NCBI GenBank assembly: GCA_965221905.1 | Contig: OZ244922.1 | Location: forward strand, 288,001 to 352,000 | Reading direction: 5' to 3' | DNA from: Chloroflexota bacterium | GTDB taxonomy: Bacteria > Chloroflexota > UBA11872 > VXOZ01 | DNA length: 64,000 bases | Part shown: positions 26,357 through 31,528 of the stretch, in pieces | Layout of the letters: every line of letters starts with the position of its first letter | How positions within the stretch are numbered: position 1 is the stretch's first letter | Program-made: the position numbers and the translations under genes | Notes under the pieces: model-generated | What the model was told of the DNA's origin: nothing | What the model saw: the letters and a program-made list of their open reading frames with translations, nothing else | Databases searched by the model: none

Positions 26357-26764
26357 TCAGAACAATCCACTGAGGGCCTCCTGGGGAGCCACTGCACGAA
26401 TTGGAGAACGTGCGTAGTCCCTGCCGTTCCGCGTGACAATGTGCCTAGCCCCGCAGGCACGAGCGGCAGCCACCTGCATGGCGTCTTCGAAGTCAGGCAT
26501 TGGTAGCTCGGCGGCATAGCGGATGCTTTCGGTGTCGGTCGTAGCTACCGCCACGAAGCGCGTAAGCTCGACAATGAAGTCGCGCGCGCTCACGCCTCCA
26601 AGCGCTGGAGACACGATGTAATAGAAGTTGGATATGGAGTGCCACGCGATGAAAGCCGCCTCCGCGCCGTGCTCAATCCGGTCCAGCAGTTCCGACGCTG
26701 GTGCGGAATGCGGATGCCTGTCGAGTGCAACGTCTATGAGTACGTCGGTGTCGAGAAGTATCAT
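26357..26764 (-). CDS. PIN domain toxin (VapC-like)
   Basis: ILLDTDVLID, DFEDAMQ, IVTRN. Confidence 0.88.
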   Translation of the reverse strand: MILLDTDVLIDVALDRHPHSAPASELLDRIEHGAEAAFIAWHSISNFYYIVSPALGGVSARDFIVELTRFVAVATTDTESIRYAAELPMPDFEDAMQVAAARACGARHIVTRNGRDYARSPIRAVAPQEALSGLF

Positions 26765-26988
26765 CGGAGGTACTTATCGGCCAGTGCATCATAGCGCGGA
26801 TCATCATCGCGCTCCGCCGCCCGAAACTTGCCTCGCCACCGCTCGGAAAAGGACGGCTCGTATTCCCCCGCCATTTCCCTGAGAGACTGCTCAACCAGTG
26901 ACGAAAGGGACACGCCCCGAGAACGGGCGTAGCGTTTGGCCACCGGCAGTAGGTCGGCGTCCACCGTAATCGTGAGCTTCTGTTTCAT
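26761..26988 (-). CDS. Ribbon-helix-helix antitoxin (DUF6364-like)
   Basis: MKQKLTITVD...AKRYA...SLSSLVE; 4-nt overlap with the PIN gene. Confidence 0.8.
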   Translation of the reverse strand: MKQKLTITVDADLLPVAKRYARSRGVSLSSLVEQSLREMAGEYEPSFSERWRGKFRAAERDDDPRYDALADKYLR

Positions 26989-27039: not shown

Positions 27040-27409
27040 GTGCTTCGGTAGTGATATACAAGAGGGCCAATGCCAGTGACCATCTGTTTCGGGGGTGCTG
27101 ATGGTGTTTTTAGGTCGCCAAGTACTATTTCTGGCAAGAGGAGGCAAGGAAATTGACTGGTTTAGAGCTAGGCGAATTGCTAGTTTCTCTGGTTGATGCT
27201 GCGGCTTTGCCATTGTTCGCGCTTGTTGTCATTCTCATGCTTCGGTCACCTCTGACAGAAGGGACCTCTTTCACGGATAGATTCACATGCAAGTACTGGC
27301 AGGTGGATGTCAGAGGGATCTCTAGGGAACCCACCAAGAAAGAGAGGTCACCGGAGGCGTTTGACGAGGAGTCTTCTTGGGACCCCACCTTCCCACGACG
27401 GCTGGATGA

Positions 27410-28144
27410 TCAAGAAGGAGCAGGCACCGTCAGGCGCAGGAGGATGGTGTTGTCTATTTCCAGGTTGCTGCCCCAGATGAGTCGGGCGGATTCGTCCCAT
27501 TCAATCCGGTTGTAGCCGTCCTTGGGCCGCACAGCGGCCTCCGACCACTCGGTGGCGGTCTCCCACTGGCTGGCGTCAAAGTCGGCACCGGCCCAGCCTG
27601 GAGGGGCCTCCGTGCTCTCGAACCGGCAGGCGGTGTTCGGATCCGCGGCCTTCTCGCACTCGGGATTCAGCGGCGCGCGATGGATCACCATCACCATCCA
27701 GTCCCCGTTCGTCACCGCTACAATCTTCCCGGTGCCGACATCTGTGATTTGCGCGATGATGCCGCCGTCGCCCATCTGTTGGTTGCGCTCTCCGATGTAC
27801 TCGAGTCCCGAATCAGTTTCCTTGAAGTCTTTGGCTTCAATGCCGATGGTCAGGGGATAGGCGGCGGTGAACGTGATGGTCTCGGCGTTGAAAGAGCGCT
27901 CTGTCGTGATGGGTGTCGAATCCTTGCCGACCAACTGTCCATTAACGTAGAGGGCGAACCAATTGTCGGCCCACACCTCAGCCACGAATTGGGACGTTGC
28001 GCTTTGGACGGAAGGTGGTTCCGTTGCATCGGGTACCGGGGAGGCGACCCCGGCTGTGGCGTCACCGTTGCCGGAACCACAGCCAACGGCCAACCACGTT
28101 ATTACCAGCAGCGCTAGAATGCTATTTGCAAGGGATTTGGACAT
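27410..28144 (-). CDS. Putative lipoprotein with beta-sandwich/lectin-like domain
   Basis: LAVGC lipobox; WADNWFALYVNG, GDGGIIAQI, LIWG; start after AGAGGAG. Confidence 0.6.
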   Translation of the reverse strand: MSKSLANSILALLVITWLAVGCGSGNGDATAGVASPVPDATEPPSVQSATSQFVAEVWADNWFALYVNGQLVGKDSTPITTERSFNAETITFTAAYPLTIGIEAKDFKETDSGLEYIGERNQQMGDGGIIAQITDVGTGKIVAVTNGDWMVMVIHRAPLNPECEKAADPNTACRFESTEAPPGWAGADFDASQWETATEWSEAAVRPKDGYNRIEWDESARLIWGSNLEIDNTILLRLTVPAPS

Positions 28145-28419
28145 GCATCTTTCTCCTCTTCCACTCCGTTTTGGTTGGGTCATGGTCATCCGGCTCCACT
28201 TGCTATGGCGCCAAACCATGGCTCTATAGTCCGATTGGAACGAGCAACATCGCCGCATGGATTCTGCGGACGTAAGGAAGCCCGAGACACACTTCCCGCA
28301 CTACGTACACTGCTAGTGTAAACGGCATGGTTCAAGAAAGTATGAATATCACTCCCCCCTTAGTTTTGAGCTGCAAACTCGCTGGGGCTTTAGGATATGG
28401 ACTAGAGTACAATGGAATT

Positions 28420-28700
28420 CGTGTGACTGGGGACGAAATTCGGTTATGGGCCCCGATTGTTCGTGCTATGTTGAGCGAGCTGGGGGTCTTTGCATCGTGC
28501 GCAAGACTCCGCTGGCGCGTGTCCTGAATTCCCGGCCACCCATTGACGAGGATTGCACGAGTTTGTTGCTCGGAGGCTTTTCTTACTTGATTGGAATAGG
28601 GGCCCGGCGTTCACAGTAGAGGGGCTTCTCGCTGGTGAAGTGACCTTCGTAACGCTAAACGGCCAACCTTCCATTCATCATTCGTCACAACCGACACACG
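28420..28700 (+). ncRNA. Candidate ~280-nt multi-stem structured RNA, family unknown
   Basis: Nested complementary segments, G-U wobbles favouring the + strand, and TACAAT at 28408-28413 just upstream. Confidence 0.5.
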
Positions 28701-28740
28701 TTACTGTCCTAAGAAGACACTTTAAAGAGGTAGTACATCT

Positions 28741-30006
28741 ATGTTCGAGAAGACCGCACTGGCAAACGGAATGCGCGTGGTCACCTCCACACTGCCGCAT
28801 ACGCGCTCGGTATCGGTAATTGTATTGGTCCGTGCCGGTTCACGCTACGAAAACGAGCCCGAGGCCGGCATTGCCCATGTCTTTGAGCACATGCTCTTCA
28901 AAGGCAGTAAGAATTGGCCGACGGCGCAGATCGTGAGTGAGTCCATCGAGGGTGTTGGCGGATCGATGAACGCCAGCACCGACAAGGAAGTGGTGGACTA
29001 CTGGTGCCGGGTGGCCCAGCCGCACTATACGCTGGCGATGGAATTGCTCGCCGATATTTTCCTCCATCCGCTGCTCGAAGATGAAGAGCTAAAGCGCGAG
29101 CAGGGCGTGATCTTGGAAGAGTTGCGGATGTATCATGACGATCCTCGTAGCTGGGTGAGTATTTTGAGCGACGAAATCTGCTGGCCGGGACATCCGCTGG
29201 GCCGAGACATCGGCGGCAGCCCCGAGACTGTGCTGGGCATTACATCGGACATGATCCATGATTACCGCGGTCGCATGTACAGTCCGCAAAACACCGTGTT
29301 GTCGGTAGCAGGCAACGTCACACACGAGCAAGTTGTGGCTGATGCCGAGCGTCTCTACGGCGCTTGGACGAACGGAGCGCCGGGGGATTTCTTACCCTGG
29401 GAGGGTAACGGACAGGAGCCGGCCGCAATCGGCGAAGGGCGAGAATCGGTGGAACAGATGACTATGCTGCTTTCGTTCCCGGGCCTTTCGTTGTTCGATG
29501 AAGACCGCTATGCTCTGGGCCTCCTGAATACCGTGCTTGGCGAGGGCATGAGTTCTCGGCTCTTCCTGGAAGTCCGCGAGAAACGCGGTTTGGCATACAG
29601 TGTTGGCTCGTATCCGCGTCACCAGCTCGACACCGGTATCTTCACGGTGTATGGCGGCGTTGATCCGGACAACGCGCCGGATGCCCTGCGCTGCATCATG
29701 GACGAAATCAGAGGCCTGCAAAATCCGGTGCCGGAGACGGAACTGCGCAAGGCGAAGGAGTTTACCAAGGGGCATCTCCTGCTTGGCTTGGAGAGTACGC
29801 AAAGCGTGGGCGGATGGGGCGGCGTGCGCGAGCTCATTCACGGGGAACTCATCACGGCTGATGAGGCAGTGGCCCGCGTCGAAGCGGTGACCGTGGACGA
29901 GATTCAGCAAGTTGCCGAACGGCTCTTTACTTCCAATGCCGTCAAGCTCGCCGTTATGGGCCCGCGCGATCTCAGCCAGGAACTGCTACCGATTGTGACA
30001 CAGTGA
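28741..30006 (+). CDS. M16 family (pitrilysin-like) zinc peptidase
   Basis: GSRYE, HVFEHMLFKG (HxxEH), NAST, SSRLF.EVREKRGLAY. Confidence 0.93.
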   Translation: MFEKTALANGMRVVTSTLPHTRSVSVIVLVRAGSRYENEPEAGIAHVFEHMLFKGSKNWPTAQIVSESIEGVGGSMNASTDKEVVDYWCRVAQPHYTLAMELLADIFLHPLLEDEELKREQGVILEELRMYHDDPRSWVSILSDEICWPGHPLGRDIGGSPETVLGITSDMIHDYRGRMYSPQNTVLSVAGNVTHEQVVADAERLYGAWTNGAPGDFLPWEGNGQEPAAIGEGRESVEQMTMLLSFPGLSLFDEDRYALGLLNTVLGEGMSSRLFLEVREKRGLAYSVGSYPRHQLDTGIFTVYGGVDPDNAPDALRCIMDEIRGLQNPVPETELRKAKEFTKGHLLLGLESTQSVGGWGGVRELIHGELITADEAVARVEAVTVDEIQQVAERLFTSNAVKLAVMGPRDLSQELLPIVTQ

Positions 30007-30039
30007 TCTGCTGACACCAGATGCGGCGCCAAAAGAATC

Positions 30040-30552
30040 ATGTATTTCGACGGAAAGGCACGTCCATTTCGCCAAGGGCACTGCTTCAAGGTCTCGGCTG
30101 CCTTGCTGGGTATCTTCGCGCTCGCGTGCTTCCTCTTGGCGGGATGTACGCTCGGTGGCGATGAGGGCCTACGCTTGGAATTCGGGAGCAGCGTGCGTCT
30201 TAACGGCGGCGGCAATACGGCGATTACAGTTGTGGTGCGGAACGTCAGTGATAGGCTCTACACCGATGAGGAGGACATTGACGGGCGCGGCGAAGTGTTC
30301 AATGGCTCAGAACAGTTGCTGGCGCGGTTTGCGCAAGTACCGGTCGAGCGACTCGCGGCGGGCGAGGAGACGACACTCGCCACCTGGCAGGGCGTCCTCG
30401 AAGAGGGCACCTATCTCATGCGCTGGACCACACCCCGCCACGGCGGCGTGGAACTGGAATTCACTTTGCTGAAGCGCTTTGGGGTGCTGGAAGTCGGCGC
30501 CTATCGTGAACGGCAGATCGCCCCTGATGTTGCTGCTTCGTCTGCGCCGTGA
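30040..30552 (+). CDS. Hypothetical lipoprotein (Ig-like)
   Basis: LLAGC lipobox followed by a beta-rich sequence. Confidence 0.55.
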   Translation: MYFDGKARPFRQGHCFKVSAALLGIFALACFLLAGCTLGGDEGLRLEFGSSVRLNGGGNTAITVVVRNVSDRLYTDEEDIDGRGEVFNGSEQLLARFAQVPVERLAAGEETTLATWQGVLEEGTYLMRWTTPRHGGVELEFTLLKRFGVLEVGAYRERQIAPDVAASSAP

Positions 30553-30670
30553 TTCTAGGCGAGGTCGCACTCTTCTACACTGCTCGCTTTGGAGGAAAGT
30601 CACAGAGAGCGCGTCACCTTAGTAGGAACAGCCAGGATTTCGCTGAGTCATCAGTCTATGCAATGGGCGG

Positions 30671-31528
30671 TCAATCCTGAACAATCTTGGCGGCGCATCC
30701 TTGCTTACGGGCTTTGAGGACGATACCCACCGAGGAGGTTTCGCCGGTACGCGCCTTTGGCGGATCATCAAACGCAAAGAGCAGACTTCGTGCCCACCGA
30801 AGCAGGCGAGAGTCGCCTTGCTCTTGATCAAACCGGTTGCACGAGGGCAAGAATCCTCGTTCGATGATGTTCTTGCCGATCCCATAGAGCAAGAAGTGGG
30901 CGAACGGCAGGCAGCGCGGGGTCGTGAACCACAGGTTTTTGAGCGCAAATCCGGCAGCGCGCACACGGCCGGTTAGCTCTGCGGACGTATAGAGGCGCAC
31001 GTGATCCGCCCAGATGCCGGCAAGCCACCAGATGTGTGCCGGCACGTGCGTGCCGAAAACACGCTCTAACACCCAATTGAGCGGGTCCCACATGAATGGA
31101 TACTGCCGGTTGGGGACCGAGATGAGTAGCAACCCTCCATCGCGGAGCACGCGGTTCAGTTCCATGAGCACAGCACCGTCTTCGACGATGTGCTCCAGGA
31201 CTTCGGAGCATACAATCGCGTCGAACTCGCCTGACGCAAAGGGGAGAGATTGAGCGTCTGCACGCGCGATCTGTACGGCCATGCCGCGTGTGTGCTCTGC
31301 GGCTGCGGTGAGGTAGTCACGGCTATAGTCCACCACGACCACGGCTGCCTGGGGATAGAGTGCGGCAATTGCTCTGGCGTAGAACCCGCGACCGCAGCCC
31401 ACGTCGAGAATGCGGCCGGCGCCGGCAGGCTGAACGTGGCGCAGGATCAGGGCGGCTCTTGCGGCAAACGCCGGATCGAGTTCATGCGCCAAGAGAGCGG
31501 CTATGTTGCTGTCAAATGTAGTATTCAA
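30671..31528 (-). CDS. Class I SAM-dependent methyltransferase
   Basis: ILDVGCGRG, DAQSLPF, FDAIVCSEVLEH, VLRDGG.L. Confidence 0.88.
   Translation of the reverse strand: MNTTFDSNIAALLAHELDPAFAARAALILRHVQPAGAGRILDVGCGRGFYARAIAALYPQAAVVVVDYSRDYLTAAAEHTRGMAVQIARADAQSLPFASGEFDAIVCSEVLEHIVEDGAVLMELNRVLRDGGLLLISVPNRQYPFMWDPLNWVLERVFGTHVPAHIWWLAGIWADHVRLYTSAELTGRVRAAGFALKNLWFTTPRCLPFAHFLLYGIGKNIIERGFLPSCNRFDQEQGDSRLLRWARSLLFAFDDPPKARTGETSSVGIVLKARKQGCAAKIVQD

Follow-up and report, generated by a model that had tools for sequence, protein, structure and literature searches.

The stretch from 28420 to 28740 of the window, a 64,000-nt piece of the Chloroflexota contig OZ244922.1, is probably a plain, long and fast-evolving 5′ leader, specific to its lineage and lying behind a strictly conserved promoter-like motif (we put this reading at about 0.7). 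It would form the untranslated start of the mRNA of an M16 family peptidase, about 320 nt long on the plus strand, with transcription beginning at about 28419-28427. That the stretch is a 5′ leader is very probable, because a motif shared by all 16 genomes of the genus precedes it and the start codon follows it, and because it has been assembled from RNA libraries together with the coding sequence. A first-pass annotation of the same DNA had proposed a large structured RNA, either an independent molecule of the 6S or Ms1 type or a cis-regulatory leader. The second proposal is supported as far as the leader is concerned, through the motif and the co-assembly; evidence for the conserved regulatory structure that it implied is weak, with support for one local hairpin only.

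The genome that holds the window (G000) comprises 3.52 Mb on a single contig with 58% G+C. The intergenic gap spans 482 nt (28259-28740), with a minus-strand gene of 282 aa and no assigned family (27410-28258) on one side and the plus-strand peptidase gene that the leader serves (28741-30006; 421 aa) on the other, so that the intergenic placement given earlier is confirmed. The product of this gene matches Peptidase_M16 (E 2e-31) and Peptidase_M16_C (E 3.5e-42) in Pfam, and all its scores against the NCBIfam equivalogs fall under the cut-offs. A Shine-Dalgarno-like GAGG is located on the plus strand at 28727-28730, 10 nt before the ATG, and the six long-leader genomes differ little or not at all over the final 19 nt or so ahead of the start codon. 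At the other end of the gap, immediately ahead of the minus-strand gene, the segment 28274-28350 shows 75-76% identity in the genomes G015, G002 and G013. Its minus-strand sequence folds into a hairpin, the source of a chance match to a microRNA model, and the segment is probably the promoter or leader of the minus-strand gene. Farther away, a minus-strand PIN-domain gene (26357-26764; Pfam PIN_3, E 3e-17) is preceded by a 75-aa minus-strand ORF (26761-26988) which overlaps its start by 4 nt, a layout as in a VapBC-type toxin-antitoxin pair. The entries listed by a full-text literature search included general papers on RNA-motif discovery and none on this locus.

The promoter-like motif TAGAGTACAAT lies on the plus strand at 28403-28413 and holds the -10-like hexamer TACAAT (28408-28413), which had been correctly noticed just before the first proposed stem. 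Upstream of the M16 orthologue the motif is identical in every one of the genus's 16 genomes, its position ranging from -90 to -768 relative to the ATG, and together with the following G it makes a 12-mer that occurs once in the 3.52-Mb genome. Outside the genus, it was found upstream of the M16 gene in none of the 14 best loci. A sigma-70 scan of 28200-28800 returned no consensus site, since there is no -35 match beside the motif; we infer that TAGAGTACAAT acts as a promoter. The surrounding sequence diverges in the 16 genomes while the motif stays identical, and it may constitute a promoter plus an operator.

The distance from the motif to the ATG ranges ninefold across the same 16 genomes, from 82 to 757 nt. 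Eight genomes have a leader of 82-87 nt, G001 has one of 128 nt and G009 one of 183 nt; five (G000, G004, G015, G002 and G013) have leaders of 322-329 nt, and that of G005 reaches 757 nt. The long leader is therefore missing from 10 of the 16 congeners, in which both gene and motif are present with only 82-183 nt between them. Since the motif is kept in every genome at varying distances from the ATG, a long leader is not needed for the gene and its promoter-like signal to work. In the nine genomes with leaders of 82-128 nt (loci L011, L013 and L016-L022), a common non-coding block has been observed upstream of the motif, at about -280 to -168 from the M16 ATG; it shows 76-89% identity over 70-113 nt between lineages and has no counterpart in the window.

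A BLAST search of the gap against 40 related genomes recovered the whole stretch in G004 (84% identity) and parts of it in G015, G002 and G013, with no match outside the genus. Full-length homologues of the leader occur in these 4 of the 16 congeners. The leader of G005 is colinear with the long leaders over its first 230 nt or so, within which BLAST confirms one 92-nt stretch of 71% identity, and its last 20 nt or so also match; about 430 nt additional to those of G000 lie between the two matching ends. The gene itself is more widely shared. M16 orthologues with 83-98% protein identity were found as complete matches in 16 of 16 congeners, with only the paralogue seen in G014, and the best matches outside the genus are 43-49% identical. 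A metagenome scan with the M16 protein returned 80 loci, of which only L117 belongs to the genus, being identical to the short-leader genome G008, and a scan of genome contigs returned no further members of the genus.

Metatranscriptome data are consistent with transcription from the leader into the gene. Four runs contain part of the stretch, with contigs placed on 27300-30700. In run X15, a 630-nt contig from an RNA library spans 28427-29061 unbroken, passing from the leader into the M16 coding sequence; its end lies 14 nt after the TACAAT hexamer without a loose end, and the upstream DNA (27300-28400) is almost uncovered in this run. Run X18, from a different study, holds a 706-nt contig spanning 28533-29243, and runs X17 and X18 also contain a variant resembling G005, whose upstream continuation has a different sequence. 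Parts of the window lacking RNA cover are not counted as evidence of silence. These data support co-transcription of the leader and the M16 gene and fall short of proof: such contigs show no transcript start, end or strand and RNA libraries can contain DNA, for which reasons both the position of the start and the reading as a single transcript are putative. No terminator-like site was found in 28200-28800.

These results bear directly on the proposal of an independent small RNA with paired ends, which would either bind RNA polymerase like 6S RNA and the actinobacterial Ms1 or be cut from the 5′ leader. 6S RNA is transcribed independently as a molecule of about 180-200 nt that ends at a 3′ terminus of its own, binds the RNA polymerase holoenzyme and folds as a very stable rod with a central bubble. 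The likeness of the present stretch to 6S RNA (RF00013) and Ms1 is limited to the size class (about 280 nt) and possibly paired ends. The promoter-like motif just upstream and the ability of the ends to pair would suit such a molecule, and no canonical 6S RNA was detected elsewhere in the genome (RF00013, E <= 0.001), so that the niche is not visibly filled; this last search is a weak test, having matched in only 5 of 14 control genomes. The leader has no covariance-model match among 4227 Rfam families, a set that may or may not include a model of Ms1. Over the whole window, no Rfam family reached its gathering score, which agrees with the earlier remark that the signatures of RNase P RNA, tmRNA, SRP RNA and the recognisable riboswitches are absent. 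At E values up to 10, the region 28150-28850 gave only two rows, both due to chance: one for a microRNA model, scoring 22.3 bits where the cut-off is 58, and one for a lncRNA model, scoring 13 where it is 50. Further points against an independent RNA are the RNA contig that runs on into the coding sequence (though contigs do not reveal RNA ends), the lack of a terminator-like site, and the restriction of this single-copy stretch to a minority of the genus, where a housekeeping RNA should be present throughout. The thermodynamic results described below also differ from those expected of 6S rods, and an independent RNA of this kind is judged highly improbable.

The region 28405-28740 has a predicted minimum free energy (MFE) of -105.7 kcal/mol, compared with -107.0 +/- 4.9 for 100 dinucleotide-shuffled controls, of which 57 fold at least as well (z +0.26). 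All 71 base pairs of the closed and branched fold drawn by eye are standard pairs in this genome, yet the fold as a whole is no better than that of shuffled sequence, and the predicted structure is branched, unlike a stable rod. G-U wobbles had been taken to favour the plus strand; for the region as a whole this is unsupported, since the minus strand gives a z of +0.35 against its own controls, and the lower energy of the plus strand is therefore compositional (G+U richness) and not a sign of selected wobbles. In four relatives, the z values for the whole leader are +0.40, -2.15, -1.13 and -0.64, so that only one of five leaders falls below -2, namely that of G015 (2 of 100 shuffles as good). 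The helices seen by eye are what any G+U-rich sequence of 58% G+C and this length gives.

Comparison with relatives leads to the same result, the 71-pair structure gaining nothing from covariation. In five long leaders aligned with MAFFT, 73.4% of cells are paired in this structure against 71.2% after shuffling partners, six pairs have changed on both sides against 6.2 expected, and the covariation score of 0.159 (0.143 after shuffling) is reached by 65 of 500 shuffles. Four helices of the proposed fold (1, the closing helix, and 3, 4 and 7) persist in the relatives chiefly through an absence of sequence change; in the other clade helices 2, 8 and 9 are disrupted, and the second domain with them. 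RNAalifold on the same alignment draws 73 pairs, seven of them with a compensatory change, and its covariation term of +1.44 is a penalty, giving no net support. Against column-shuffled alignments, the plus-strand z values of the closed domain are -1.23 and -1.24 (14 of 100 and 9 of 100 as good) and its minus-strand values -1.46 and -1.77, and the ratio of consensus to single-sequence energy is about 0.48. Adding G005 (six sequences, first 235 columns) gives a consensus z of -0.60. Consensus folds computed separately for the two clades (82 and 96 pairs) have no pair in common. The power of these comparisons is low, with 5-6 homologous leaders in three lineages, and MAFFT alignments at about 60% identity are uncertain and may hide covariation.

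Two local features may be real RNA elements. The first is the closing helix, in which 28420-28425 pairs with 28695-28700 on the plus strand. It is kept in five of five long leaders, with 96.7% of cells paired in the five sequences; three of its six pairs are invariant and three vary on one side, with no compensatory change. The idea that this helix is an old hairpin with an expanded loop was dropped, because the energies of the duplex between the 5′ and 3′ ends do not beat those of shuffled sequences (fraction as good 0.10 to 0.71 across the five long leaders). Around the ribosome-binding site, RNAalifold draws only a helix of four invariant pairs.

The second feature is a locally conserved hairpin at 28461-28504 on the plus strand, with 14 consensus pairs. 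In sliding windows only the first 100 alignment columns stand out (z -2.8 on the plus strand, -3.1 on the minus strand), and their signal comes from this hairpin. Its consensus energy is -14.9 against -5.2 +/- 2.3 in column shuffles (z -4.3; 0 of 1000), for a window that was picked after the fold had been seen. With G005 included (six sequences), the z is -3.4 on the plus strand (2 of 200) and -0.7 on the minus strand. Four of the 14 pairs change on both sides between lineages. The hairpin is strong in G015, where 12 of 12 main-stem pairs form, and weak in G000, which has three mismatches in the 14 pairs. It differs from the pairing in the first-pass annotation and competes with the helices placed there at 28459-28466 and 28475-28518, and the MFE structure of G000 prefers that alternative hairpin. 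Judged from the aligned sequences, some structure in the leader may be under selection, given the compensated hairpin and the retention of the closing helix, and the hairpin may have a regulatory role.

Both features would be central to a lineage-specific cis-regulatory RNA, riboswitch-like or protein-binding, in which the hairpin and the end helix sense a signal and tune the translation or stability of the M16 mRNA. The stretch has the place and orientation expected of such a leader, it contains conserved sequence blocks inside an otherwise fast-evolving region, and the double-sided pair changes, the preference for the plus strand with G005 and the kept closing helix all point the same way. 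Riboswitches and structured cis-regulatory leaders share with it the 5′ leader position and, here, one hairpin with compensatory changes. They differ in that the present leader shows no conserved multi-helix aptamer and no terminator platform, and in that its long form is dispensable in 10 of 16 congeners with the same gene and motif. Global covariation and a consensus fold are also lacking, divergence is within the range of neutral proxies (see below), and the hairpin was chosen post hoc and is absent from the MFE structure of this genome. A cis-regulatory RNA of this type is considered unlikely.

The leader is non-coding, as judged from its pattern of sequence change. Indels of 1, 2 and 5 nt between lineages shift the frame, and no codon position is favoured among the variable sites (chi-square p 0.20 in the G015 trio and 0.81 for G000/G004). 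Three ORFs in the leader gave no match in Pfam. A conserved upstream ORF starting at 28446 was considered, its start being common to the leaders for seven codons, and was rejected as too short and inconsistent: it stops after seven codons in three genomes and continues for 54-57 codons, with many amino-acid changes, in two. No ORF beyond seven codons is common to the long leaders. In each of the five long leaders the seven-codon stretch (28446-28469) opens with the shared ATG or TTG start, 9-12 nt downstream of a purine-rich run, and most of its changes fall in third positions; it is too short to call as a leader peptide. In G015, G002 and G013 the leader is traversed by long open frames on the minus strand. 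Coding on this strand was also rejected, as two overlapping frames are open at once and the substitutions show no periodicity; the frames look compositional.

Between G000 and G004 the leader is 0.85 identical, compared with 0.77, 0.95 and 0.89 at fourfold-degenerate sites of the upstream gene, the M16 gene and the downstream gene, respectively, and between clades leader identity is 0.59-0.63 against 0.47-0.60 at fourfold sites. The leader therefore evolves within the range of local neutral proxies, and this comparison gives no clear sign of purifying selection on it. Between G000 and G004, identity steps from about 85% to about 97% at the start of the M16 gene, and G000 and G005 are unalignable upstream of this start and about 96% identical downstream. 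This jump makes a single neutral baseline uncertain. The step in similarity at about 28700-28741 suggests a putative recombination boundary at the start of the gene.

The variation in length also raises the question of whether the long leader stems from DNA that entered between the promoter and the gene, for instance a mobile element or gene fragment since decayed, and is now only transcribed through. Such an origin would account for leader lengths that jump between 82 and 757 nt with no change in the motif or the final 20 nt or so, and for the extra nucleotides in G001 (about 46 relative to its sister genomes) and G005. Against it, the long leader is single copy in G000 (one match), and that of G005 is single copy in its own genome and absent from G000, G004 and G009; the ORFs gave no Pfam match, and inspection by eye revealed no convincing terminal inverted repeats. 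The M16 tree leaves 7 of its 14 inner branches open and has a very long outgroup, and this poor resolution means that it does not decide whether the short or the long leader is ancestral. An insertion relic is regarded as rather improbable; it concerns the origin of the sequence and is compatible with its present state as a plain leader.

If the stretch is a plain leader, the course of expression at this locus may be outlined as follows. Transcription would start a few bases after TAGAGTACAAT, run through about 320 nt holding no conserved ORF or terminator and continue into the M16 gene, which would be translated from the GAGG ribosome-binding site. Within the transcript there would be two candidate RNA elements, one formed by its first bases pairing with a stretch that lies some 40 nt ahead of the ribosome-binding site, and the other being the hairpin at 28461-28504. 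If active, the two would most likely have a role in mRNA stability or translation efficiency. A base-paired 5′ end shields bacterial mRNAs from 5′-end-dependent decay, and stabilisation of an mRNA by such an end is classically illustrated by the ompA leader of E. coli. The present leader resembles ordinary long bacterial 5′ leaders in lying between a promoter-like signal and a ribosome-binding site, in being co-assembled with the coding sequence, and in being non-coding with first transcribed bases that can pair downstream. It differs from them in its ninefold range of lengths within one genus behind an invariant motif, and a stabilising role is putative here.

A bolder version of the regulatory reading, and a doubtful one, is that the long leader is a young, genus-restricted regulatory RNA, in which a 5′-terminal helix closes the leader and the hairpin at 28461-28504 binds a protein or small molecule and so sets the amount of M16 peptidase. 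If this were true, the invariant 11-nt motif would double as an operator, and the ninefold variation in length would reflect regulatory modules gained and lost repeatedly at a single promoter.

The analysis is mainly of value as a correction: although the 336 nt appear closed and branched to the eye, their fold is no better than that of shuffled sequence, and the stretch should therefore stay off lists of candidate structured RNAs. The compensated hairpin at 28461-28504 is a candidate element of stability or translation. Taken with its invariant 11-nt motif, the range of leaders from 82 to 757 nt in this uncultured Chloroflexota genus offers a natural series for studying what long leaders cost and contribute.
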